Shown piece after piece: positions 16,973-63,535 of a stretch of DNA of 64,000 bases; the first letter of the stretch is position 1; each line of letters starts with the position of its first letter. A program made the position numbers and the translations under genes. Location of the stretch: positions 1,364,001 through 1,428,000 of the forward strand of contig CAVNZM010000006.1 in assembly GCA_963693365.1 (NCBI GenBank). Direction: 5' to 3'. The notes beneath the pieces are model-generated. The model saw only the letters and a list, made by a program, of their open reading frames with translations. It was not told the origin of the DNA and ran no database searches. This DNA is from Amoebidium appalachense (Eukaryota; Protista; Ichthyosporea).

Positions 16973-23896
<6,924 letters not shown>

Positions 23897-30243: not shown

Positions 30244-31373
30244 GGCGGCGGGCAAGTGTGCACGCGTGCACTCACTCCACACTCTAAACGTGTATGCGAG
30301 CATGCACAAATCAGTTAGTGGAAGATGGGTGTCAATCGAGCCCAATTGCACGGGTTAGTGTTTGTTGCACATCCACAAGGCCTGGCTTCATGTGAACTAA
30401 AGCTAATGCACCAACAGCAAATGATGGCCCCTACAAAGAAAAACCATCGCAGTTCGGATGGATGTGCCATGCATGTTTGGTGCACATGTGCGTAATTATA
30501 GAACCACCCCCAGTAGTTAAAGAAACACGCATACCGGGTAGCGTTCTCATCCGTGCGTGCCATTATAATGTAGTCCCCCAGCTTCTTCTCCATCAGTGCA
30601 AGTCGTAGCCAGGCCTGGCCCCTAGCCCTAGGTGTCATCAGATCCGCCATGTTTCTGATGGTCTCACGGCAGCTATCTTTAATGTCTGGGTTGACTTCGT
30701 CTATGTAGCCTGCAGAAGGGGGAGGGGGAGGGTGGGGGAGGGGAGGGGAGGGGAGGGGAGGTAAGGAGAGGGGAAGGTGGGGGGAGGAGGAGGAGATGGT
30801 GGTGGTGGTTGTGGTGGTTGGGGGATAGGGGGGGGGGAGGGGGGGAGGGAGAGTCAGAATGTTGTATATAGTACTAGGTATCAAGGTACACCACGAAAAT
30901 ACGGTGCAGGAAATATAAGCGTCCGCTTGAACAGAGACAGACGGAGGGTGAGCAACATCATCAGGGGAACACAAAGGGCGATGGAGGGGGGGGGAGGGGG
31001 GTATATGAGGCTGTTATGCATCTATAGGTGGGTTATAACCCCCCCCCCCCCCCCCATCCCTCCAACACCTCCCCCCACCCCCCCCCCCCCCTTCGCTCCC
31101 AAACATTGCGTTCCAAGGATGTTTCCGAAGGTCCCCCCTTCCTCCCCCCCCCCCCCCCAAAAAAAAAAAAAAAAAAAAAAAAAAAGGGAACCACCCATTC
31201 TCACTCTCTGCCCGTAAGTCAGTGTCTCTAACCCCTCCCCTCCCCCTCCCCCCCCCCTTCGACCGCCCCAGCCATCCACCGACCCTTACCATCTCCCCCC
31301 TCCCTGCCCCCATCCCCCCCAAAAAACCCCGACTCCATCCTTTCTTACTCTCCGCCCCCGTAAGTCAATGTCT

Positions 31374-34297: not shown

Positions 34298-45196
<10,899 letters not shown>

Positions 45197-45951
45197 ATAG
45201 TGTGGGTGTACTGCACGCTGGCCGTGCGGTTAAATGTGTTTTAAAATTTAATGTGTGTGTGATTGGCGGTTTGATGATTTGATGAGGGACTGAAGTCACT
45301 GACACTACCAGAAAATGCCGTGCGCAGGGGGACAGTTTAGTTGACTAAGGCTTCTTTTTCCTTTGTTTCGTTTGCTTTTTCCTTTTTGCTTTTCTTTATT
45401 TATTGTGGTCGGTGTGTTTGGCATGTAGGAATACACGTCGACTTTGATCCCATCACAAGTGGCAACTTGCAACGGCTTTTTTTGCCGATATATTTGTGAT
45501 ACGTCGTTTCATTCCTGGTTGGTGTAGTTATGTTAAGGTATAGAGTACAGGTGTAAGGGGGAAGGGCGGTTAAGGTGGCCTGGGGCCACCTTGTAGGTCC
45601 CCGTGTGACATGCAGACGGTGTGGTGTATTGTATCTATCTGCTGCAGTAAATGTGCACCACAATTCAACATAAGCATGTTTGGTATTGGTGTGGTTAATA
45701 ATGTCATCTACTACACGACCATGAGCTAGCTAGAACCACAAAAGCCGGCCGACGACAACACGCCAGCAACTACAAACAAGATAACAGAAACAAAGCAAAC
45801 TTTGAAAACCGTTACGGAGGTGGGGAGGGGTATACGTATTATATATAGAATTCGACTCTCTGGCCTTTAGTAAAAGCAAGTCCGTACGTTTTGCAGTGGG
45901 CGCCAAGGAAATTGGAAAGTTTTGGGGGTCTAACTGGCAGTCTGCGGTAGA

Positions 45952-45989
<38 letters not shown>

Positions 45990-46318
45990 TCCTCTGGACG
46001 CCCCGCGAGCGGACATATATTTATAATATTATATTCAGGAAGTCCGAAGGCCTGGTCAACACCGTTCATACTTGTGCACCGTGTTCCGTGAGCTACTATG
46101 ATGTATATCACGGGCGAGTCTCATCATAAGAAACGTAAACGTTGGACTACAGAGGCTACGGATTTTCCGCCGGCGGCTTGTTTTTTATTGTTTTCTAAAA
46201 CTTTTTTTTCTTGATAATGACATGACATAATCCAATAAACCAGAGGCAATACTCCAATTGCAACCCTTTGTGGTCCTATCCGAATCCATAGTACAACTTT
46301 AATATTACATTTAATCCC

Positions 46319-46349
<31 letters not shown>

Positions 46350-46372
46350 ACACTGACACACACACGTGCACC

Positions 46373-46429
<57 letters not shown>

Positions 46430-46628
46430 GGCTACCGGCAAAGTTAACAACTGGTGCACATGCATACACAAATCTACATGAACAACCTGCACCTATCAAG
46501 TTCTATGTAGTATGGCATATCAATGCTGCTCAAATTCTGAATTCTGCTCCTGCTATAATCAATTGTGTGCAAGCTCTGAAAGCACCCCCCTCTCGCCCCC
46601 CGTCCCTGCCCCTCCCCTCCCCCCCCCC

Positions 46629-46668
<40 letters not shown>

Positions 46669-47006
46669 AAATACACACACACACACATCAAAACCAACAC
46701 CCTTCATACAGCTCAAACCAGGGCCCCACCCCCTCCCCCCGGCTCCCTCCCCCATCGCCTCCTCCACAGGGGAGCTCTATCCACTTAGCCTTCCGTGTGC
46801 TACATAGTAATTTCACAAAACATATCTTCTAGGTTTGGATTTCTGAAGAGATTCGGTACTTTTCAGTGAAGATGGCTAGATGAGCGAGATTTAGAACCCA
46901 ACCGATTCTTATCAAGTGCTATTCACTATGCTTATTGAGACTAAGCAGACACGCAACCACCAGCGTATCAAAACGGAAAGAATACTATGTGGTGGAATTA
47001 GAAATC

Positions 47007-48368
47007 CTAGAGGCCCCAAATATCCTTCTTGTCAGACTGGCGCACACCAAAGCTCTTTGCCGCAATTTTTCCGCATCCTCTGAATTTTACCATTCTCAAC
47101 ATGGGTAGTTTTTTGAGAACACTCACATCACTAAAGAGGTTGTTGTGTTTAAACTCCAACTCTACCAGCCTCGTGCACGCTGTCAGGCACGAAATGTCGG
47201 AAACCTTTGGCATGACCCTAAGCCGCAACACACGTAAATTGGTACATTTGGCCATGGGGGTGATGTCGTGTGTCTCCCTTGCTTCTATCTGCAGATGTGT
47301 AAGTTGTGAGCACTCACTCAGGACCGAAATATCTTCAAGACCTAAGACGTAGAAGTTGAGGTGGCGCAGGGGTAAAAGGCACAACCGTAAGGGGCCAAGC
47401 GTTTCGTATCTTATCTTGGTGGACTTAAGTATCAGTTTCGTCAGTGTGGTACAGTGTGTGACAGGGGTGATATCTCTCCCGCCTAACAACGAACACGTGA
47501 GCGTGGATACGTGGAGAGGAAACTCAGTTTGTCGGACATGTCGTCGCTCGTCGAATCGGAGGCGGGTGATTGGGAAGGAGAATAAATCCTTGGGCATACT
47601 GCTCACCACGGCTTTCAACTCCGCCAGACGTGTTAACGTTGTCACTACGTTGCGTAGACTGTTGCCCCAGGTCATGGTTCGCAGGGACGTTAGCTGTGTG
47701 CATGTCTGAATGTGGTGTGTGTCTGTGGTGCTCATTGCACCAGCAAACAAGAGTTTGCGCAGTTTCGGAAGTTTCGGTAGCACCGCTAGGCCCTTGACGT
47801 TTCCCTCTTCATCCTCGAGAAACTCCAACCTTGTCTCCGTTAGGTTGGTGCACGTGCTCAAAGGGGTGATGTCCACATCTTTGTCCGAATCAGGGAAACT
47901 GATGTGTAGCACTTGAAGTTGTGGTGCTTTTTGTGCGATGATTTGTTGCTTGATGCGTTCCTCTCCATCTTCGACTCTTAGTCTCTGTAAGCGCCTACAG
48001 TTTGACAGAATGTGTGTGAATGCATCTGCTTGTTTCTGTGTCGTGCCTCCAGCAAACGAAACGAGTGCACGTAGCGTCTAGTAACTGCCTCACCCCATGC
48101 TCACCCCAGCAACGGTAAATTTGGCTCCGGGGGAGAGTGTGCCGCAATGGGGGATTAAAAGTGCCATGTTTTTCCATGCATGGCACACCAAGGTGCACGC
48201 ACACCGTTCTTTGTAGGTGAGATACGAAAAGATGCCTTCTACGATTTCTCGGTCCAACATCTCTACGGTAAGATGTATGGGGTCCTCTGCTTTAGAGTGT
48301 TGGGAGTCCTCTACAGTTAAAATTTTAGGGTCCTCGATACTCTCATCAACGGCAAATACGGACTCCAT
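47007..48368 (-). CDS. F-box and leucine-rich-repeat protein, ~420 aa, 2 exons
   Basis: Exon 1 48094-48368 has F-box LDREIVEGIFSYLTYKERCACTLVCHAW; 99-nt intron GTGAGG...TAG (47995-48093); exon 2 47007-47994 has LRRs DITPLSTCTNLTETRL, DISVLSECSQLTHLQI, DISCLTACTRLVELEF. Confidence 0.88.
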
Positions 48369-48996
48369 AGTGCTGGGTGTGAGATTGATTGTATAGGCAA
48401 TGTTTAGAGAACCTGAGCCTACATATATATACCTTTGCCAAACGGTTGGCCCCACTGAGTGCAGTGAGCGCAGCTCTCAGTGACTCACTGGCAACAGTCA
48501 CCCTCACGTGGGCTGCCACATTGCAAGGCTGTGCCGCTGTGGCAACCACCCGCCATTCAGATAACCGAACGTTTAGCCAAATATGGGGAAGCCACATGCA
48601 TTCCAGCAATTTTTTCGGATGTGAAGTTGTGCTTTGCAATTTGCAAAATTTCAGCAAATCGTCCGCCCCACACGCGGGCAGTTGAACTTCCGAGATAGAG
48701 TCTCAAGTTAAACTCCATGTAATACCTATGCGAATGCACATATCTACTGTTTTCAAAACTTCAGACGTTTACCTTTTACTACGCACAATTGCTATTGTTC
48801 TGCATCAAATAAAGGTGAAAAAGTCGGTGCCTCCTTTCAAGCTATTTTTATTTATCATTGGAATGTGATGCGTGCGTAGCCAACCAGGTGACTGCATCGA
48901 TGAGCCACCCTTCGCCGAGCTTGGCCAAGCAAGATCCGAGCCCGGCGGAGCCGATCTGCGGCGATCGCGGCCAACAGCCAACCCTTGGGTCAGCTG

Positions 48997-49007
48997 CATA
49001 TAAACAC
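48997..49007 (+). promoter_or_regulatory. TATA-like box conserved in both duplicates
   Basis: GCATATAAACAC at ~48997 and ~59017, ~200 nt upstream of each ATG, preceded by conserved GGCCAA/GCCAAC motifs. Confidence 0.5.
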
Positions 49008-49202
49008 AGCCACCAAGAACACAAGAGACACACAACAGCAGCTCTAAGAAGAAGATAAACAAACACAATCCAAACACAATCTGACAATAGTGAAAACGCA
49101 TCACTACTTTTCTACTTCAAGCTATTCTGAATTTAAAGCAATATATATACACAGCTTCACATTTTCGCAGGCATTTGAAACCCAAACACACCGTTGAACA
49201 AT

Positions 49203-50123
49203 ATGGCGTCTATCCTCGCCACCGGTTCCAGCGGTGCCCTTGGTGCACACGGTTTCGAGCTGTCACGCAACGTCTGCGCTGCCCTTTCCACCGGGGTGCG
49301 TGCAGCCATGGCACGTCGAGCAGGCACCCAGGTAGCCAACGCAACAAGTGTTCTACGGACCAGCCGTGGCCTGCACACTTCTCCTCCACGTCTTCACTGG
49401 TGCAAGAACTGGTGCCCTCCCCCTCCTCCCCCACCGCCCGGTGCTGCACCTACGGCAGCAGAGACTCTGGCCAACGGGGCGGCGGCCGGCTACAAGGGCC
49501 ACTACAACCACTATCATTGGTGGTACGCCAACCAGCACAACACTGGCGGCAGGCGCCGCTTCCGCCTGATTCCCATCCTGGCAACAATCGGGGGCTTGTG
49601 GGCCATATGTGAATACAAGTCACTCAAGAAGGAGTTCAGGCGCTACCGCAACGGTGCTGAGGCCGAGATTGAACAACTGAAGGTCGAGGCTGCCAGCGTC
49701 ATGGAGACGGCCCGTGCATACCAGAAGGCCCTGCGCAGTGACGGGGACATTCTCAAGAGGTTTTCCAGCCGTGTGGAATCGAGTGTGAGTGCATTGGAGA
49801 ATAAGCAGGTCACATGGGACACCGTCGTGGCTGAGCTCAAGCAGGCCGTTCATGATGTACACAATGACGTCATGGCCCACGCCCCTCTGCCCCCTCCGCG
49901 TGTTTCCCAGCCCACGTCCCAATCTAATGTCCTCCACCACCACCCCCATCGCATAAACGCCGCCGACAGCACTGTGGCACACAACGAGCAATTCTCTGAG
50001 GACCGTGACACCACCGCAAATAGCCGCGGCTTCCACCGTCATTGGCACCACCATCGTCGCGAATGGGACAACCGCTCAGACCGACCGGAGGATTATGGCC
50101 GTGAGGGCAGGCGGGGAGATTGA
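49203..50123 (+). CDS. 306-aa putative mitochondrial single-pass membrane coiled-coil protein (ORF1, copy A)
   Basis: Ala/Arg/Ser-rich N-terminus with a single acidic residue, ending RGLHTSPP (presequence-like); hydrophobic LIPILATIGGLWAIC after RRRFR; coiled coil; His-rich tail. Protein conserved in copy B. Confidence 0.8.
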   Translation: MASILATGSSGALGAHGFELSRNVCAALSTGVRAAMARRAGTQVANATSVLRTSRGLHTSPPRLHWCKNWCPPPPPPPPGAAPTAAETLANGAAAGYKGHYNHYHWWYANQHNTGGRRRFRLIPILATIGGLWAICEYKSLKKEFRRYRNGAEAEIEQLKVEAASVMETARAYQKALRSDGDILKRFSSRVESSVSALENKQVTWDTVVAELKQAVHDVHNDVMAHAPLPPPRVSQPTSQSNVLHHHPHRINAADSTVAHNEQFSEDRDTTANSRGFHRHWHHHRREWDNRSDRPEDYGREGRRGD

Positions 50124-50774
50124 CTTGTTGCGGTGTTCTCGTCTGACAGACCGGGCAACATGCAAGCAGTACTAGGTGGCGCCCATGAGCCCCCAGTGAC
50201 CCCACCAGCCAACGGCAGTAACCATCCCCTTGTGGTTACACCCGCGCCTGCCACTATGTGCATTCAACCCGGTTTTGGCGAGAACACCACCCCGGCAACA
50301 GAGCCCACCCCCGTTACTTGTGTAATGGAGGATAAGGCTCAAACTATCAAACAGGCAAAAACACTGACAACTGTGGTTACTCAACGAACACAAACGGATA
50401 ACAAGGAAAATTTCACCATTCAGTTGGAGACGGGGGTAGTATCGGGCGATAGTACGGCGACTGACGTGAGCGATTCAGAATTGCCCAAATCCAACATGTT
50501 TACGCAAGATACACCATCACCGATAGATGTAGAGCAAACAAAAAGTAAACGGCAAAGTAGGAGTGCTGAGAACAATCAATCGGATGTGGTTCAAGCCATA
50601 TCCGTGCACGTGCACAAGAATCCCATGGATTATGCGGCATCACCTGGCCGTTCGCAAAATATCATTGGTGCAGAACCGAACAATCAGCAACAGGGAACGA
50701 CGATTGGAGCATGGCAGGCTGTGACAGCTGTTACCAACGTAGTAACTGCAGTGGCAGTATGGTGGTTGTGGTAG
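50124..50774 (+). CDS. In-frame 216-codon extension after the ORF1 TGA, ending in a hydrophobic tail (ORF2, copy A)
   Basis: Same frame as ORF1; open in both copies with frame-preserving indels; conserved C-terminus GAWQAVTA(V/I)TNVVTAVAVWWLW*. Confidence 0.72.
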   Translation, partial: LVAVFSSDRPGNMQAVLGGAHEPPVTPPANGSNHPLVVTPAPATMCIQPGFGENTTPATEPTPVTCVMEDKAQTIKQAKTLTTVVTQRTQTDNKENFTIQLETGVVSGDSTATDVSDSELPKSNMFTQDTPSPIDVEQTKSKRQSRSAENNQSDVVQAISVHVHKNPMDYAASPGRSQNIIGAEPNNQQQGTTIGAWQAVTAVTNVVTAVAVWWLW

Positions 50775-51355
50775 TGGGAGCAGTAAGCGGTAGATGGGTG
50801 CAATTGTTTTTTTGATGGGGCCATTTTTGTGTTGTATTTTGCTTTAAATGTACAGCAAGTTTAACGAATAACGGTTAGTATCCAGATTTCATAACGGTGG
50901 AATGGCTACGATATTCTCGTAGTAATCATGTGGTTACCATAGGGTTGATGTGCATTTCAAATGTGGATGGTGTTTGTCAGCATATAAGTGCCCCTGAGTG
51001 TATAGCAAACGAAATGTAGAACCTGAAACTGGACTGTTCATAGGGTGATATTGGATAATCAAAGATGAAGCAAAATAAAATAGTTTTTGTCTGGAAAGAC
51101 AGCTGATTACAATGAATTATATGAAACAATAAATGTGCACAAAGCATCTACAAGAACGAACAACTAGCCTATCTTTTACACCTTTGAATACCTTTCCCTC
51201 CTTTCCCAAGTCCTCCATGTACCAAAAACACTTGTGGGTGTTGTCCGAACCGTTGAATTCGATGTGGGTATTTGGCTCTCAGCGTCTGAACTTGTGGGGA
51301 GCTCGGTTACACTGTGCTTACAAAACCGTGAGTGTGCTTGCGTGTGTGTGTTTGT

Positions 51356-51386
<31 letters not shown>

Positions 51387-51469
51387 GGGGGGAAGGTGGG
51401 GGGGGGAGGGGGGGGAGGGGGGGGAGGGGGGTTCTGCGTGTCTGTGTGTCTGTGTGTCTTTTGTGTCAC

Positions 51470-51539
<70 letters not shown>

Positions 51540-51721
51540 GTGTGTGCGTGTGTGTGTGTGTTGTGTGTGTGTGTGTGCGTGCGTGTGTGTGTGTGTGTAT
51601 GCACATGTGTGCTTGCGGCCCCAGGCACGGTGTGCGTGCATGCCCAGTGTTTGAGTGTGCATATCTGCAACCGTGGGTAGGGGTGTGTGACACGGTGTGT
51701 GTGTGGGTGTGGGTGCAGGTC

Positions 51722-51764
<43 letters not shown>

Positions 51765-52375
51765 TGTGTCATGGTGTGTGTGTGTGTCATGGTGTGTGTG
51801 TGGGGGTGGGTGAGTGTGTGCACAACTTTGTGTGTGTGTGCGCGCGCGTGTGTGTGTGTGTGTGCGTGTGTGTGTGTGTGTGGGTATGTGTCTGTGTGTG
51901 CGCGCGCATGTGTGTGTGTGTTGAGCTACCGTATAGCCGTGGTGGGAAAAGGAATTAATGGGCATGTATTTTGTGTTGTGTTGTGTGTTGACAGAGGGAG
52001 TCAAGTCTGGGTAATGCCTGACTGCTTCTTTGTGAGCATACTGTATGTGTGCGGCATTTTCAGCCAAAAGTGCAGCTTAAGTGCTGACACAACCCCGCCC
52101 CTGCACACACACAAACTTAAACATGCACACACACTGGGAGGGAAGGGGGGAAGGGGGTGGGGCATGCAAGGAATGGGGGTGGGGGGGTGAGGGAAGGGGG
52201 CAGGCAGGGGATAGTGGGGGATGGGGGGGAGGGGGTCGGGGAGGGGGAGGGGGGGGGGGAGGGGGGGAGGGGAGGGGGGGGGGAGGGGAGGGGGGGGAGG
52301 GGGGGGGCCGGTGGGGGGGGGGGGGAGGGGGGGCTCACAGTGTTTGCACGCCGGCATAGCGCCATATGCCCTGGC

Positions 52376-52439
52376 TAGGGAATCTTGATTTTGAAACGCG
52401 GAGGGGGGTAGTAGCTAGTTTTTTTTTGTTTTTTTTTTT

Positions 52440-52478
<39 letters not shown>

Positions 52479-52675
52479 AGGGGGGGCCACCCACCCCTCT
52501 GGCTAGCAGGGGGAGGGGGGGGGAGGGGGGAGGGGGAGGGGGGGGGGCCACCAACCACATGCAGTAGGTGGGTCCCCCCCCCCTGGGGGAGACCCACCCC
52601 CCCACTCACCCAGGTCCCTCCCCCCCCCCTGGAGGGGTTGGGGAGGGGGGGGACCCACCCACCCCTGCGGCTACC

Positions 52676-52716
<41 letters not shown>

Positions 52717-52798
52717 GACGCACCCACTCCGGACGTCGATATTAAGCAGTGCACCTTAACTACTCTCCCCCCCCCATTTCAAATTCAAAAATCCCCTA
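52376..52798. mobile_element. Possible degenerate hAT-like MITE between the two duplicated copies
   Basis: TAGGGAATCTTGATTTTGAAA ... TTTCAAATTCAAAAATCCCCTA imperfect inverted ends; TSD unconvincing. Confidence 0.4.
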
Positions 52799-53103
52799 TC
52801 CCTAAGCTTTATATAAGCTTCTCAACAGCTTTCACGCGGCCTGCTTGCTTTAATAGCAACCTTGACCGATATGTAACGGCAGGCGGTCACGCTACACTGG
52901 GACACAATGCCTATTATGAGCTATATCAAGTTGGTTCAGTCAACAAAAGAACCGCTATTTAAATGCTCTTTGTTGCACCTTAGCGGAACGTCTAACGTGT
53001 TATAAAGACATTGGAAAAAAAAATAAGTAAATCAGGAGATGGAAAGATAGGCAACAAGTGTGAAGACAGTTATCGTGACTATCAGAATATTTGGGTGATA
53101 CAC

Positions 53104-53182
<79 letters not shown>

Positions 53183-53607
53183 ACAGTCACTGCCACCTAC
53201 TCATCCTTCTGCTTGCTGACCAGCTGTCAATTCATTGTCCTGTTCCCAATACTGTGTACCGCTTGTGATCGAATGGCTTGTGTGAACCTTGGTCTTTCTT
53301 TCTTTCTTTCTTTCTTTTAAAAAAAAGAGAGTGAAGTTGAGGGGGGGAGAGGGGGGGGGGGGGGGGGGGGGGGAGGAGTATTTGCCAGAAATTCGTGTGG
53401 TTCACAGGTTTCAACCTGTTGGGTATGTTGCTTGCTTCCATCCCTCCCTGTGTCGGTGCATGGTCCTTTGTGTTTTCATATAACATCATGCTTGCAGCTC
53501 CTCTATGCTATCTGTTGTCATCGGAAAGATATATTTCAGCTTTCTATCCTTGTTTTGGCCTGTTGTCTTTTTTTGTATTTGCTCTAACCTTTCCGCACAC
53601 CCCACAG

Positions 53608-53782
53608 CCACAGCCACACCGGGGGGCACACCAGCCAACGGTACAGCGCGCAGTCTGGAGTACGGCCTGCCCAGCATGCGCTATCTGCAGGCATACCCCC
53701 GCATGGGCCTCTACCTCAACCTGGCATCTGCTCTGTGTCTCAAGGTTGATCTGGACCGTGCTCAGGCTGTATGTATTGCATT

Positions 53783-53828
<46 letters not shown>

Positions 53829-54801
53829 ACACACACACGTGCCCACATACACACATGCTCACACACACACACACACACAAAAAAAAAAAACAGAAAGCAA
53901 GAAAGAAACCTTATAAACCATGTTGGTACAGGGCCCACACAGTCAAACAAGACCAAACGCCCAGTTGCATTCACAGGGGCAAATGGTCCCCCCCCCCCCC
54001 CCCCCCCCCCCCCTCCCCCACGTAGTAGATTGTGTGTACGTTGGGAATGTTTGCTTTGTATCTGTATAACATCCTTAACAACCCTCCCTCCCCCCGTGTG
54101 TTTGTTGCTGACTGTGCACACAGTGCATTTCACAGGCCATCAAGTACTTCCCCTCCAACGTGCCTCACCCCCCCAGGCCGTGCTGCTGACGGCATACCTC
54201 GAACTGCTCAAAGGTGCGGGCCTGTATGCTGATTGGCTAGCTGGTTGCCATGGTGACTGCGTGGCTGCGGATGTTAGGCAGGGCTGGATTGTGTGTTAAG
54301 TTATGTTGCAGCAGTGCATGGATGATGCATTGGTGCTTGTATGGCAACAAAGGCAAACACACGAACACCCAAGCGGTCGCTCGACATCCCCCCCCCCCCC
54401 CCCCCCCCCCCCCCCTTTTTCCTCCCGTGGGGACCCCGGGAGAATGGGTTTTGGTTTGGTTGCTTAGCCTCTTGAGTTTACTAGTTGTTGTTGCTTGTCA
54501 TCCTATGCACAACACGTCGTGTTGTTGTCTTCAAATTATTGTGTCGTATAGTTTAACGATCCTACCCCCCCTCTCCCTCCCCCCCCCCCCCCCCCCCCCC
54601 TCCCCCTCCCCCCTCTCCCCCCCCCCCTCCCCCCCCCCTCCCCTCCCCCTCTCTCCTGAAGATGGGCTCTACTAATTATGTGTGCCCTGTACGCTCTTTT
54701 TAGCAATCCGGCATCGTGCTGTCCATTGTGAACGTGTAACCCACTTCGTACTCTGTTACGCATTATAACCCATCCCCCCTCCCCCCCTCTGCACTACACA
54801 C

Positions 54802-54877
<76 letters not shown>

Positions 54878-54959
54878 TCACACACACGCACACACGCACA
54901 CACGCACACGCACACGCACACGCACAGGCACACGCACATGCACATGCACACGCACGCAT

Positions 54960-55012
<53 letters not shown>

Positions 55013-55170
55013 CACACACACACACACACAGGCAAAATCCCCCGTGCTCTGGCTGCGATCAAGCAGCATGCGGTACGCCCCGTGGCTCCCACCCCCCCCA
55101 TGGGCCAGGCCAGTCCCAGCCCGATGGTCCGCAGACAGCCTCAAACCCCCCACTGGGCCCGTTCGATAGA
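53608..55170 (+). pseudogene. Duplicated CNOT10 exons 14-16 (partial copy)
   Basis: Exon-like blocks ~53608-53768, 54124-54213 and 55032-55170 keep their splice sites; single-base indels in C-runs (~54170, ~55150) shift the frame relative to copy A. Confidence 0.75.
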
Positions 55171-56615
55171 TAGTGTGGGGGTACCGCATGCTGGCCGTGC
55201 GGTTAAATGTGTTTTAAAAAATTAATGTGTGTGTGTGATTGGTGGTTTGATGTTTTGATGAGGGACTGAAGTCACTGACACTGCCAGAAAATGCCGTGCG
55301 CAGGGCGACAGTTTAGTTGACTAAGGCAGTGTTTTCCTTTACGTTTTCTTTTTTTTTTTTTTTTTTTTTTTTTAAATGTGGTTTTCTTTATTTATTTAGT
55401 CTTCGGATATGATGTTGCAGCTAATACAGTTGGGAAGGTGTGTTTGGCATGTAGGAATACACGTCGGCTTTCAAATCAAAATCTCAAGTGTTCACATGCA
55501 GAGGTTTTTTGTCGATATTTTCATTCTTGTTTGGTGTAGTTATGTTAAGGTATAGTGTACAGGTGTAAGGGGGAATGGCGGTTAAGGTGGCCTGGGGCCA
55601 CCTTGTAGGGTCCCCGTGTGACATGCAGACGGTGTGGTGTATTGTATCTATCTGCTGCAGTAAATGTGCACCACAATTCAACATAAGCATGTTTGGTATT
55701 GTGGTGGTCATCCGGGCATGTGCAACACAACAAACAATTGTGTCAATGCATTGTGTGTGAAGATTTGTGAATATAACGCCAAGGCGTGTATAGTAATTAC
55801 CGATGTGTATCGGTGTCCTTAAGCTTGTGTGTTTGTGTCATTTGCCATCGTGTCATAGTGTGCGACCTTCAGTACGTGACGGGAGGTGCGACATGGTGAT
55901 ATGAAGGGCAGGCGGGGGAGGAATGAGCAGCCTCGGAGGAGGGGCAGGGAAGGTGTGTACATGTTGGGGGGGGGGGGGGGGGGGGGGGGGGTTATGAGTA
56001 GGTCAGGACTCCGGGCCCAAGGAAAGCTTTTTAAGGTCTAAAAGTTCAGTCTGCAATCGAATCCTCCCTCCCAGGCTAGCCCCTATTAATCCCCTCCCCC
56101 CCCCTCCCCCTCCCCCCCCCCCCCCCCCCCCCACCCACCCACCCTCAGCTCCAACCCCCCGATTCCTTGCAAAATGAAGAATCTTGCAGGGTTTTTATTC
56201 ATGAGCTCTGCTTAAACCCCCGAAAATCAGGATAACACAGCCAAAAATTCAAAGTGCCTGCTGACGTTACGGTGTCGCATAAAACTGTTACAGCCATGGT
56301 ACGGATTATTACATATTTAGGGAGGTCAACAACAAACTGTGCACCATGTCCCGTGTGTTACTATGATACAGTCATCACCATGGCCAAGCGGATCATCAAA
56401 GCTCAACCTGTGGTAAAACCTACGAGAATCCACAAACCAAACAACCAAAGGTGATTCCCCCAGCCTTCGTGGTCATTTCCATAACCCAACCTAATGAACT
56501 ATTCCTCCCCCCCCCCCCCCCCCCCCCCGGCAACAACTGTTGCGTACGCACGCTACACACCATACAAATTAAACTGAACAGCCACTGAGTGTGCAAGCAC
56601 TGTATATACTAAGCC

Positions 56616-56662
<47 letters not shown>

Positions 56663-57201
56663 AAAAAAAAAAAAAAGGAAGAACGAAAGATAGAAAAAAA
56701 GAAAGAAAGAAAAGAAAAAACAGTAAAAAATCCTTGCAATGAGGCCAATACCCCCCCCCCCCCCATCTCCCCCTCCACAGAAGGACTCCTATCTGGCTTA
56801 ACCTTCTCTATTTCATAGAGTTCGTAACCTCACGAAGCATATCAGTTAAGGAGAGTCAGAATTTTCATTGAATCTATGCACATAAGAAGTTCAAAGCTCC
56901 GAGGATTTCTAGCATCAGGCGCTTGAAGAACGAACTTACAGTAACTGTGCATCTGAGACTAAGCAGACATACAAAATCAACCAAATATGGAGCAAATATG
57001 CGTTCCAGGAATTTTTCCAGATGCGAAAACTGAGTCTCCCGGATCCGGAAGGAGATAATGAAGCTGTGCTTTCCAGGGCTAAGCAAATTCTGCCCCACAA
57101 ACTTTCAGACCATATGAGTAGGGTATCAATTCTAGTAAACCCTACGCGAATGCACATATCCACAAAATTTTAAACTTCCCATATTTACCTTGTACTACAC
57201 A

Positions 57202-58815
57202 TAGGCCCTTGCAAAAATATCCCGGTTTTTGCCCTGAATATCATTCGGGATATATCACGAAAATATCGAATGTTGCCCTCAATATCACAAAAGTATCCCG
57301 CCAAAAGCCCCTGAATATCATTTAAAAAAATTTCTTTGGCTGACGGAAAGATATGCAAGTATGCACGGCATACTGAGAAGACAATAAAAAAAATAAAAAA
57401 CTTCACGAGTTATCCAGTAACAAGTGCATACTGAGATACACACTTCACTTTCACTTCGATCTCTTAGCTGTCACGTCAACTTTTTTTCCCGATTCTTCAC
57501 CATGGCAGGTATATAAAGGCTTTCGTTTCTTCTTTTTGTGGTGGGAGGGAGTCCCACTCAGGGGAACGTGACTGCAGCGTGTGTGTGGTGTGGCCTGGTG
57601 TATTCCTACTGCTGTGAGAGTGTGGGGGCATCTCCCTTTCGCGGAGTTTCTCGCTTGAGAAGTGGTTTCTTCAACGCCTGGTGGTCCACTGCAACCTATG
57701 GTAACTTCTACACGCTGTCTACGCTTCTACGCGATCTATTGGCGGTGGGCTGCTGCAACTTCTTCAGCTACTTCTGCGCTGCGTGAGTGGAGGGGCGGCT
57801 ACTTGGTCGTCAGGGAGCTTTCCAAGTGACTGCCAGTCCTTAGCCTCCAGTCGTGTGGCAATGACCGGGTTTGCTTGCATGCATTCTGTAATTGTGTTTT
57901 TCTGTGTGTCCTGCCACAACTAGGCCACCTTATCAGAGAGCTAGATGCAGTTTCTCCGGGTTATCTAGGGGCCGGGCCCGTTGGGATTGTTTTTTAGCAC
58001 AGATTTGGTCTGCATTGCTCTTTTAGAGGCTGACTTGCTTGCTGTGCCTCGGTAGGTTTTGAGGGGGGCCTGGTGGGAAGCAGCAGTAATGATGTCTTCT
58101 TGCGGAGTGTGGTCTGGTCAACATCGATGCATATGACTAGTTGGAGCAAACTAGTCTCACGCATACACGTACACTTCAAGGTTTTGCCCGCTGGTGTCCT
58201 TTGCCACTTGTCGCTTTATATTTATTTCGTAGCTTTGGCTTTTTCAGTTCTATTGGTGGGTATGTAGCCTGTGGCTGCACGTTGCCTTCATCAACGGATC
58301 AATAAAACCGAGTCAAAAGAAGAAAAAAAAATCATATAAATACTCAATGTGACGACCGTTTTTGCCCTGAATATCACGAAAATATCCCTATTTTTACCCA
58401 AATAAGGAAATATACAGGTTTTGTTTCGATTTCCGCTATTTTTGTGAGATCCCTTGAGAGAGCATATACCCCAAGATTATCAATCTAAGGACAATCCGAA
58501 GCAATCCGGTCGCTTTTAGGCCCTTTTTAGGCTAAAACAGAAGATTTGGTAGTGCAGGATGTGTGAATAAGAGTTTTCTGTAACTTTTTGTAGTAGTTTT
58601 CACATATTTTTTTATTGAAAACAAGGGATATATCCCGCTTTTAAAGCCGTGATATATTCTGCCCTGAAAGATACTTTTGATATATCATTTTTTGGTCCGT
58701 CCCCTGAATATCATTTGATATATCTTGACATGCCCCTGAATATCACGAGATATATCAAGTATCGAATTGGCCCCTGAATATCAAAAGATAATCGGGATAT
58801 GTTTGCAAGGGCCTA
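57202..58815. mobile_element. Non-autonomous hAT DNA transposon, 1614 bp
   Basis: 23-bp TIR TAGGCCCTTGCAAA(A/C)ATATCCCG (22/23); perfect 8-bp TSD ACTACACA (57194-57201, 58816-58823); multiple subterminal CCCTGAATATCA; paralogous empty site in copy A near 48770-48790; no transposase ORF. Confidence 0.93.
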
Positions 58816-59233
58816 ACTACACACAAAGCACACAAAAAACGGAGCCTCCTATTTTTGTTTTATCCAATGTTGGAATGTGATGCGTGCGTAGCCAACCAGG
58901 AGGCCGCATTGGTGAGCCACCCTCGGCGAGCTTGGCTAAGCAAGATCCGAGCCGATCCGAGGATTCCGAGCTCGATCGCGGCCAACAGAGGCCAACAGCC
59001 AACCCTTGGGCCTGCTGCATATAAACACAGGCACCAAACTCACAAGAGACACATACAACAGCAGCTCTACCAGAAGAAGATACAAAAACCCTATCCAAAT
59101 ACAATCTGAAAACAGTGAAAACGCGTCACTACTTTCCTACTATCATCAACATCATTGCCCTGAATTCTGGCAATACACACACGGCTTTACATTCTTGCAG
59201 GTATTTGAAACACAAACGCACAACTGTTACAAT

Positions 59234-60833
59234 ATGGCGTCCATCCTCGCCACCAGTTCCAGCGGTGCCCTTGGTGCACACGGTTTCGAGCTGTCACGCA
59301 ACATCTGTGCTGCCCTCTCCACTGGTGTGCGTGCAGCCATGGCACGTCGGGCAGGCACCCAGGTAGCCAACGCAACAAGTGTTCTGCGCACCAGCCGTGG
59401 CCTGCACACTTCTCCTCCACGTCTGCACTGGTGCAAGAACTGGAGCCCTCTCCCCACCTCCCCCACCACCAGGCGCCGCACCTACTGCGGCAGAGACTCT
59501 GGCCAAGGGGGCCGCAGGCGGCTACAAGGGCCACTACAACAACTATCATTGGTGGTACGCCAACCAGCACAACACTGGCGGCAGGCGCCGCTTCCGCCTA
59601 ATTCCCATTCTGGCAACCATCGGGGGTTTGTGGGCCATATGCGAGTACAAGTCACTCAAGAAGGAGTTCAGGCGCTACCGCAACGGTGCTGAGGCCGAGA
59701 TTGAGCAACTGAAGGTCGAGGCTGCCAGCGTTATGGAGACGGCCCGTGCATACCAGAAGGCCCTGCGCAGTGACGGGGACATTCTCAAGAGGTTTTCCAG
59801 CCGTGTGGAATCGAGTGTGGGTGCATTGGAGAATAAGCAGGTCACGTGGGGCACCGTCGTGGCTGAGCTCAAGCAGGCCGTTAACGATGTGCACAATGAC
59901 GTCATGGCCCACGCCCCTCTGCCCCCTCCGCGTGTTTCGCAGCCGGCTAAGGCAGAATCTAACGTCCACCACCACCACCACCCCCATCGCATCAACACGG
60001 CCAACGGTCGCACTGTGGCATACACCGAGAAATTTTCTGAGGACCGTGACGCCGCCGCAAATAGCCGCGGTTTTCACCGTCATTGGCACCACCATCGTCG
60101 CGAATGGGACAACCGCTCAGACTGGCCGGAGGATTATGGCCGTGAGGGCAGGCGGGGAGATTGACTTGTTGCGGTGTTCTCGTCAGACCGACCAGGCAAC
60201 ATGCAAGTAGTGCTGGGTGGCGCCCCTGATCCCCTAGTGACCTCACCAGCCAGCGGCAGTGACCAGCCCCTTGTGGTTACACCCGCACCTGCGGCACAAT
60301 GTGGAAGAGACAAGCGGTCTGCTACTGTATGCACACACCCCTGTTTTGGCGAGAACACCACCCCGGCAACAGAGCCCACCCCCATTGCTTGTCTGATGGA
60401 GGATAAGGCTCAAACTCAACAGGCTACACAATCGACGACTCCACGAACACAAACGGATAGCAAGGAAACTTTCACCATTCAGTTGGAGAGGGGGGCAGCA
60501 TCGGGCGACAGTACGGCGACTGGCGTGAGCGAACCGGAATTGCCCAAATCTAATATGTTCACACAAGATACACCATCCCCGTTAGATGTAGAGCAGTCAA
60601 AAAGTAAACGGCAAAGCAGGAGCGCTGAAAACAACGATTCGGATGTAAGTTCAGTCATATCAGTGCACATGCACAAGAATCCCATGGGTGATGCGGCATC
60701 ACCTGGCCGTTCACAAAATATCATTGGTGCAGAACCCACCAATCAGCAACAGGGAACGAAGAATGGAGCATGGCAGGCGGTGACTGCTATTACCAACGTA
60801 GTAACTGCAGTGGCCGTGTGGTGGTTATGGTAG
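59234..60833 (+). CDS. Copy B of the ORF1-TGA-ORF2 gene, with a +1 frameshift near 59449 (pseudogene or sequence error)
   Basis: MASILATSSSGALGAHGF... from 59234; removing one base from AGCCCTCTCCCCACC restores the poly-Pro frame; TGA at 60162-60164; ORF2 open to TAG 60833. Confidence 0.7.
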
Positions 60834-63535
60834 TGGGAGCAGTAGGCGGTAGACGGGTGCAAGGTTTTCAACAACGGGTCCATTTTTGGTGTTGTATTTT
60901 GCTTTTAATGTACAGCAAGTTTAATTTAACCGTTAGTATGTTAGTATCATGGCAAGATTTCATAACGATGCCAGGTATCCTCGTAGTGTTGATGTGGTAA
61001 CATAATGGGCTTTATGTGGATTGATTGGATGGTGTTTATTGGCATATAAGTGCCTCTGAGTGTATAGCGTACGAAAAGGAGAACCTGAAGCTGGATTGTT
61101 CATAGGGTGATATTGAATGGTCAAAGATAAAGAAAATAAATGGAGTCTGTCTGGAGAGACAGCTGAATACTATGAGCTAACTATCTTGCAAAACAATATA
61201 GGTGCACTTGAGTCTTTCTTTCTTTTTCGTTTCTTCCCCTCTTCCCCATGTTTTCCAAACATTTGTTTGTGTGGTGGTGTGGTGGGATAATAAATCAATG
61301 TGGGTATTTGTGTGCATTGGATGTTCTTGTGCGGAGGGGGGTGGTACTATACATATCATTGAACTATGGGTTTGTGTGTGGGTGTGTCTGTGTGTGTGTG
61401 TCTGCGTGTCTGCACACGTCACGGTGTCCGTGTGTCCGTGTGTCTGTGTGTGTCTGCATGTGTGTGTGTGCATGCGCGCAGTTTTGTTTGAGCGCGTGCG
61501 CGTGCGTGGCGCTACAGTGTGTGTGTGTGTGTGTGTGTGGGCGCCCAAGCGCCCGCGTGCGCGCGCGCGTGTGTGAGCATGCGAGCATGCGAGCGTGCGT
61601 GCATAGGTGTGTGTGTGCGTGCGCGCAGTTTTGTTTGAGCGCGTGCGCGTGCGTGGCGCTACAGTGTGTGTGTGCGTGTGTGTGTGCATGTGTGCCTGTG
61701 TATGTGTGCGTGTGTATGTTGTAGAGGGGAAATAGAAGGGAAATAGAAGACAGAGAGTGATAAATAATAATAATCGGGCTGGTTGACCATATATTTATAG
61801 ATTATACCGTGTACAAGCAGTGTAATAAGAACCAGTGAGCTTACAAGGGTGCTCTGCCAACGTTAGTTACACCTAAATGAACGGTGACCTAAGGAGCGCA
61901 TCACCACACGTTCATTAGCTAAGCGTGGTCTAGAATGTAGAACAATACAAACTAGCGGACTTAGTCCCTGCCTTAGGCGTCCCAAGTAGCTATATACGAA
62001 CTGGTTGGAGCCGGTGTATGGCTATGTGTTGCAATGGACACTGTAAACAATGATATACACGGCAATCGGTAAAGTGAGGTGTCAATCGATGGTCAAACAA
62101 GCCTTATTGTAAAGTATCCTCACGGACACTTCAGTGTAAAATGTATGTGTATGAGTGTAAACGGGGTTCACTCTGAACTGGATTTCAGAGGATCGATGCG
62201 TGCGTTTATATACGGATGGTCGACCCGGACAAGATTACTTGACCAATTACACAACTCCCTAGCCGACCAATCATATTACAGATTAGTACAGGGCTAGTAA
62301 TTACTGTGTGTGACTACTTGGTCTCTTGCCGGTTCTAACACTCATATATAATCTTTACTGCTGCATGACTTATGACTTACACAGCCCCGAAATATACTCC
62401 AAATAAACAGGTACCAGTACTTTTCCTGTTTATGACTTTGGTTACCAGTTACCTTTCGGAGTGCTGTCTCTCTCACATGTGTAACTGCAGGTTTACAACG
62501 ACCACTCATTGCAGCTGGACTTTACCGGGATGCCCTCAACATGACTGGTCGAATATGAGACTCCCCAATCACTCACAACCTGCTTGTTAGTTATTCGTTC
62601 TCTATGGCCGCAGCATTTACGTGTTCCAATCAACACAGAAGAGGCCATAAGTGTCCACTCACGCGAGTCTCACTGTAGTTCGTTTCCAAGTAACCGAACA
62701 TATGTAATTGTATTTGATCATCCGATTGGAAAAGCAGATATAACATTTATGATTGGCTCATTCATCAGCAAACGCCGACATCTGACTGGATGAGCCGGCA
62801 CCGACGAATTGTAAATAAAGCAAATAGATCTGAATAGATCTGAATCGATCGATTGACACGAATGCTCGCCGCGGAGACATAACACTTATTATATCCAAAA
62901 TTCAATAGCGTTGGCTAATCCGCGGATTTGATAGGTCATAACTCGATAGCGGGGATACAATCGAAGGTAGCCCTACGTGTCGTAACGAGAAACTCTGCCA
63001 AGGGGTATTTATGATTGGTCCAGATCGAATCCGGTTCGATCCGATTAGCCATATAAGGAAACTGCAAAAAACCGTTTTTACGAAAGGTAGCCCTACGTCT
63101 TTCGACCCACAATGCAAGGGCCCCCTACGGGTACGGGGTCTAAATGTAATACATGCGAGCCAGTACATTGGATTATGTAAGATAAACACAACAATTTTGA
63201 ATAGCAGGTATGCCGCGAAACCAGAAAGGTTCGTAGAGTGAATAAGTTAAGAACTAGTAAAAATCATGGAAATAAGAAAGAAAACATAGAAGTTAGAAGA
63301 AAGAGACATATATATATCTATCTAGTGGTGCCGGGTGTAGAAGGTGTAGTGTGTGCGCGTATGTGAGAATCCGTTATGCATTTTGGAATGTGATCATGGC
63401 ATTGTGGAATGTTACCAAAGTGTAGTGAACGATCGCGATCGGAAAAATAGAGATGGAAACATGGTGAGAGAGAGAGAGAGAGAGAATGAGAGACTCGGGA
63501 AGAGAGAGAGACAGCAGAGAGAGTCGGAGGAAGAG

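Follow-up and report, generated by a model that had tools for sequence, protein, structure and literature searches.

Is an in-frame stop codon between two open reading frames the end of a protein, or is it sometimes read through? The question is raised by a plus-strand gene in the 64,000-nt stretch of Amoebidium appalachense DNA that we analysed (the window). The first open reading frame of this gene (ORF1, 49203–50123) ends in GGA GAT TGA, the next codons are CTT GTT GCG, and 216 sense codons follow the TGA before a TAG at 50772–50774. This layout had been reported in the initial annotation, and the sequence confirms it. Termination at the TGA gives a short form of 306 aa, and readthrough would give a product of 523 aa (306+1+216). 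When ORF2 was subjected to 3000 dinucleotide shuffles, the frame was as free of stops in two of them. The gene is present in two copies, A and B, with the following features:

43641–61207, plus strand: tandem duplication with ~10-kb spacing that includes the present gene together with the final exons of a CNOT10-like one (self-BLAST, exon comparison)
48999–49004, plus strand: TATAAA box, present in both copies (sequence and alignment; contig cover starts ~45 nt downstream)
49048–51160, plus strand: unspliced polyadenylated transcript of copy A (contigs 49048–49482 and 49453–50778)
49203–50123, plus strand: ORF1, 306 aa, orphan protein (exact protein in the protein collection)
50121–50127, plus strand: in-frame TGA followed by CTTG, a UGA-CU core readthrough context (same in both copies; kept in transcript contigs)
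50124–50159, plus strand: linker of 12 codons between the stop and the next ATG
50160–50162, plus strand: in-frame ATG with A at -3, a possible internal start (conserved in both copies)
50124–50774, plus strand: ORF2, 216 codons, a T/V/P/S-rich polar spacer and a hydrophobic tail
50772–50786, plus strand: TAG of ORF2, three codons, and a second in-frame stop (TAA in A, TAG in B)
59234–60833, plus strand: copy B, same layout, TGA at 60162–60164 and an ORF2 of 222 codons (contigs match copy B)

The RNA evidence consists of assembled contigs, flagged as probable RNA, from three runs (X1, X2 and X3) of one sample. Such contigs lose rare variants and do not reveal internal transcript starts. Copy A is matched by 20 records in X1, 497 in X2 and 0 in X3 (16 pieces listed), and copy B by 3 and 108. 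Contigs 49048–49482 and 49453–50778 match copy A with 0 differences and 0 gaps, and the latter, a 1326-nt contig of X1, runs through the TGA and past the ORF2 stop. Non-templated loose ends of A23 place the poly(A) sites of copy A at 51156 (X1) and 51160 (X2), and depth is zero at 48700–49043, upstream of the transcript start at ~49048. Given this zero upstream depth, a start ~45 nt after the TATAAA and an A23 end, the cover of copy A behaves as mRNA. Since the 1326-nt contig is exact across the TGA, the main form of the mRNA is neither edited nor spliced there, and ORF1 and ORF2 share an mRNA. The initial annotation had considered constitutive splicing out of the TGA and polyadenylation before ORF2. 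Neither is seen: no splice joint is listed among the 20 (X1) and 497 (X2) records for copy A, and both poly(A) sites fall after ORF2. For copy B, a contig covering 60156–60372 holds the TGA with 0 differences; it starts 6 nt before the TGA and is too short on its 5ʹ side to bridge the two frames. There is no splice joint among the 3 and 108 records for copy B, and its 3ʹ end was not located among the matching contigs. An X2 contig of copy B (61177–61300) passes 61300, beyond the counterpart of the copy A poly(A) site, which may give this copy a longer 3ʹ UTR. A suspected intron in the 5ʹ UTR of copy A is unspliced in the contigs. The gene at 49048–51160 is intronless, and its neighbours have long, repeat-rich introns.

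The initial annotation had described a paralog with the same layout. The TGA at 60162 and the 222 open codons that follow it bear this out, but copy B as assembled is frameshifted, which had been missed. The two copies are 84.7% identical over 2391 columns. One extra C at ~59452 in assembled copy B causes a +1 frameshift, such that ORF1 reads 152 aa. The sole X2 contig over 59452 lacks the extra base (depth 1546.7 of 1546.7) and ORF1 is strongly constrained; hence the extra C, which lies in a C-run, is likely an assembly error, and copy B is likely intact. Protein P0003 resembles copy A over its first half and copy B over the rest. It is likely an assembler chimera, and therefore does not confirm the frame of copy B at 59452.

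The duplicated neighbour is a gene that we take to be CNOT10-like; Pfam gives only weak TPR matches for it. Alignment of 53648–55708 with 43641–45695 of the window shows that the duplicate took only the last exons and the 3ʹ UTR of this gene. The second CNOT10-like copy carries 1-nt and 4-nt indels, the former in a C-run where it may be an error, and looks like a decaying fragment. An intronless 242-aa leucine-rich-repeat (LRR) ORF at 47007–47735 on the minus strand (LRR_4, E=5e-8, Pfam) is divergently oriented to copy A and is missing from the second duplicate. LRR-like sequence goes on upstream at 47739–47873, so that the LRR gene may extend further or be broken. Between the copies, promoter-proximal DNA shows 86% identity, which exceeds that of either UTR. 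Further away, the ORF list holds exon fragments at 30315–30650 and 19458–21892 (both minus strand) that resemble a RUN-domain protein and an IBR-type ubiquitin ligase.

Is ORF2 translated? We compared the two paralogs, both from one genome, using 211 codon pairs for ORF2 and leaving out gapped codons. ORF1 has an omega of 0.20 between copies (P=3e-9). For ORF2, omega is 0.51 (codon model with transition bias, likelihood-ratio test P=0.008). The paralog comparison of dN/dS that the initial annotation had suggested gives 0.42 for ORF2 by counting, compared with 1.04 and 1.32 when the frame is shifted, and the three frames of the 3ʹ UTR, used as a control, give omegas of 0.73, 1.00 and 2.29, none of them significant. 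The signal is uneven: the first half of ORF2 cannot be told from neutral sequence (omega 0.95), and the second half can (omega 0.29, P=0.0003). There are 42 changed codons in ORF2, as against 52–54 expected under neutral simulation (P=0.001–0.003), and substitutions are less frequent than in the 3ʹ UTR (79/639 versus 65/351, P=0.011). As had been claimed, indels in ORF2 preserve the frame: all three do so (30, 3 and 9 nt), compared with none of eight in the 3ʹ UTR (P=0.006). Identical residues make up 171 of the 212 aligned between the ORF2 copies, and one position differs in the last 22. Together, the omega values, the neutral simulation, the in-frame indels and the near-invariant tail indicate that translation of ORF2 is very likely; its proximal spacer is under loose constraint, and its distal half is constrained.

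ORF2 begins with the 12-codon linker between the TGA and the ATG at 50160. The three differences listed for it in the initial annotation (TCT/TCA, AGA/CGA and CCG/CCA) are there and are all synonymous. With 3 synonymous and 0 nonsynonymous changes, the simulated P is 0.016–0.022, a value that depends on three substitutions only; 13 of 188 12-codon windows of ORF2 are likewise free of amino-acid change. An ORF2 that starts at the ATG does not require the linker changes to be synonymous. The linker tends to favour readthrough over an ATG start, on the strength of three sites.

The sequence around the stop is less distinctive than had been suggested. The run of identity described as 42 nt is in fact 59 nt long (50085–50143) and is unremarkable: ORF1 has identical runs of 87, 59 and 58 nt, and hence the identity around the stop does not point to a special element. 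A candidate stimulatory hairpin downstream of the stop was dismissed, since it folds no better than shuffles (z -0.8 to +1.4). The TGA CTT G is present in both copies, and the TGA is kept between paralogs at a dS of about 0.2; no outgroup locus turned up in the profile, metagenome and viral-contig searches. The expected leaky context is present in its UGA-CU core, but the full UGA-CUA-G is absent, the actual sequence being UGA-CUU-G with T rather than A as the third base. UGA followed by CU is described as sufficient for readthrough in Ustilago and in HeLa reporters, and an A after UGA-CU as raising readthrough further in HeLa cells (PMC4207609). The high-readthrough motif is given elsewhere as UGA CUA G (PMC12233894).

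We propose that UGA-CU readthrough is the best explanation of the locus, with a probability of roughly 0.68. The initial annotation had reached the same interpretation, and the unspliced TGA, the late poly(A) site, selection on ORF2 and the UGA-CU context all support it; its argument from the identical stretch does not hold. A single unspliced mRNA with an internal UGA would give rise to two proteins through partial readthrough, with the UGA in its UGA-CU context probably decoded by a near-cognate tRNA. The products would be a 306-aa protein terminated at the UGA and, probably in smaller amounts, one of 523 aa. The latter would gain a polar spacer of ~190 aa and a predicted C-terminal membrane anchor, and hence a second membrane attachment.

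An alternative explanation is that ORF2 encodes a separate tail-anchored protein of 204 aa whose translation starts at the ATG at 50160, either because ribosomes reinitiate on a bicistronic mRNA or because a shorter transcript begins internally. The ATG is kept in both copies with its A at -3, the strongest selection falls downstream of it, and the contigs are blind to internal transcript starts. Against this, the ATG is preceded by 12 ATG triplets in the transcript, which makes leaky scanning implausible, and reinitiation behind a 306-codon ORF is inefficient. An internal start would also leave the UGA-CU context without a reason, and the 12 linker codons are stop-free and in frame, with synonymous differences alone (P about 0.02). 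We consider it improbable. Readthrough candidates in Anopheles and Drosophila were identified from the coding signature of their second ORF, using 21 genomes and PhyloCSF, and a transcript lacking coding signal from the stop up to a conserved ATG was regarded as dicistronic (PMC5100048). Like those candidates, the locus described here shows coding-like evolution past a stop that is conserved between the copies, perhaps also in the part before the ATG, and splicing and SECIS elements were checked. Unlike those studies, ours has two paralogs only, too few for the branch-length rule applied to the insects (PMC5100048) to guard against a recent nonsense change.

A small, mostly retained intron from the GT at 50101 to an AG at 50166 or 50169 could occasionally be spliced out, which would take the TGA with it and join ORF1 to ORF2. 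The initial annotation had named this competitor, and the GTGAGG donor and in-frame acceptors (66 and 69 nt) do exist in both copies, but the contigs contain no joint. Rare isoforms can be lost from contigs; even so, there is neither a joint nor a loose end at this place, though the 497 records of X2 include low-abundance variants. There is no exonic AG at the donor, the two nearby CNOT10-like introns examined are ~560–650 nt long and repeat-rich, and the synonymous-only linker would be a coincidence. Such an intron is very improbable.

Very doubtful, too, is a relic: an ancestral 523-aa gene that suffered a nonsense change before the duplication, with an ORF2 that is untranslated and open by chance. 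The neutral first half of ORF2 fits this, the probability of remaining stop-free over 79 substitutions (about 0.06) is not negligible, and the ancestral state is seen in no relative. However, a relic does not account for selection after the duplication, which is apparent in the second half and in the three in-frame indels, and the co-duplicated CNOT10-like fragment did gain frame-breaking indels.

The least credible explanation is that the UGA encodes selenocysteine or is reassigned in the nuclear code. A loose GUGA-helix-AA-GA hairpin does lie across the end of ORF2 in both copies, at 50721 and 60780 (50721–50781 and 60780–60840), with hits in 15/300 (A) and 6/300 (B) shuffles at relaxed spacing and at least 9 pairs, and the stops read in the LRR gene, the CNOT10-like gene and ORF2 are all TAG; but the candidate needs a spacing of 39–40 nt, relaxed post hoc, with no hit at the canonical 16–30 nt, it folds no better than shuffles (z near 0), three Rfam scans with E up to 10 found no SECIS family, the site has no surrounding redox-like motif, and each of the 12 Trp codons in the 523-codon frame is a TGG. 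Terms for selenocysteine machinery in ichthyosporeans were not found among the literature matches listed.

What would readthrough add to the protein? The predicted features, all encoded on the plus strand, are:

49203–49370, plus strand: predicted mitochondrial presequence, ~aa 1–56 (6 basic residues (R/K) and 1 acidic (D/E) in the first 60)
49560–49616, plus strand: predicted first membrane segment, aa 120–138, behind a basic cluster (Kyte-Doolittle mean 1.32)
49617–49877, plus strand: predicted helical/coiled-coil region, aa 139–225, common to P0002 (low-confidence model, mean pLDDT 37.7)
50703–50771, plus strand: predicted C-terminal membrane segment, aa 501–523 (Kyte-Doolittle means 1.2–1.5)

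The short form would thus consist of a presequence, one membrane segment and a helical domain beyond it. The dN/dS is 0.07 for aa 1–70 of ORF1 and 0.09 for aa 100–223. At the end of the presequence is R-G-L-H-T-S, which we take to resemble a mitochondrial cleavage motif. P0002, a distant relative of 166 aa (29% identity, E=1e-4, phmmer), has a similar hydrophobic segment at the same place as aa 120–138. From the basic N-terminus, the cleavage-like motif, the hydrophobic segment and the layout shared with P0002, we predict that the 306-aa form is a mitochondrial inner-membrane protein. The C-terminal segment is the sole hydrophobic one in ORF2, where Kyte-Doolittle values elsewhere reach at most 0.64; both segments are moderate, with 19-residue means of 1.3–1.5. 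His-rich stretches (HHHPHR and HRHWHHHRR) lie ahead of the stop in both copies (49872–50120; dN/dS 0.35).

Database searches indicate that the gene is a lineage-restricted orphan. Among 1.84 billion representatives of any length, phmmer found 2 matches, the query itself and P0002. ORF1 matched only itself among 6643 candidates (168–536 aa), ORF2 had 0 homologs among 356 candidates (118–378 aa), and a three-sequence profile recovered P0001 and P0002 only among 7998 scored sequences (91–541 aa). The single cluster partner of the 306-aa protein and the 166-aa relative are both from EukProt, labelled Amoebidium parasiticum. No related locus was found in metagenome or viral contigs. Pfam, PDB and the atlas gave nothing above cut-off for the protein; atlas scores of 0.75–0.80 are below cut-off and are leads only.

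What is the functional significance of the long form? Since the tail forms the very end of the protein and its conservation extends to single residues, we favour a role as a membrane anchor over one as a degron. A degron or mislocalising element is, by analogy, a live alternative: in MTCH2, with its double readthrough (PMC7863902), and in the AMD1 tail (10.1101/2022.07.20.500724), the extension is described as mislocalising or degrading the protein. The gene described here resembles these in that a mitochondrial protein would be extended, or in its hydrophobic C-terminal region, and in the second in-frame stop behind ORF2. That second stop is possibly a backup, or possibly the site of a second small readthrough. 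The codons between the two stops are TGG GAG CAG in both copies (50772–50786 and 60831–60845).

In Ustilago Tpi1 and human LDHB and MDH1, UGA-CU(A) readthrough isoforms of soluble enzymes are described that end in PTS1 (PMC4207609). As in those genes, UGA is followed here by CU, and a conserved in-frame extension has a putative targeting element at its end. In contrast to them, the extension is 217 aa long with a hydrophobic end, the context is CUU-G rather than CUA-G, and the host is an orphan with a predicted presequence and membrane segment. A C-terminal PTS1 is absent from both forms, which end in …RRGD and …WWLW.

The two hydrophobic ends of the long form are ~360 residues apart, of which ~190 are polar spacer. 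The long form could be a two-ended tether, with its N-terminus in the mitochondrion, a disordered spacer of 190 residues and a C-terminal anchor in a second membrane, though we regard this as unlikely. A tether or dual-targeted isoform had been put forward in the initial annotation, and what speaks for it are features of the sequence. If the tether is true, the leakiness of one stop codon would determine how many organelle contacts there are. Proteins with competing signals at their two ends are described as able to tether organelles, an example being Ptc5 (PMC11447717). The long form would be similar to Ptc5 in pairing a predicted presequence and membrane segment with another targeting element at the opposite end. 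Unlike here, the PTS1 of Ptc5 is in the normal frame, and that review does not use the word readthrough.

Amoebidium belongs to the Ichthyosporea. In one study it is presented as a protist with a close relationship to animals, and six transcriptomes and two further genomes from the genus are reported there (PMC11244446). For another protist, readthrough has already been proposed (10.64898/2026.08.31.748405). We found no report of readthrough in Amoebidium in the freely available papers and preprint texts searched, and the word readthrough is absent among the matches listed for related protists, a search too loose to settle the matter for the group. UGA-CU readthrough is already known; the novelty here is a long spacer and membrane anchor as its putative product. 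Because the gene is a lineage-restricted orphan, its general impact is limited. If our interpretation is correct, this would be a case of selected cellular readthrough in an ichthyosporean, a group between fungi and animals, with UGA-CU readthrough known on both sides. It would also add a 217-aa spacer and membrane anchor, which is unusual compared with a short peroxisomal tag. The protein collection holds the 306-aa short form and nothing that matches ORF2. Genes of this kind would be annotated only as their short form, and a genome-wide look behind UGA-CU stops in this lineage could therefore reveal more of them.
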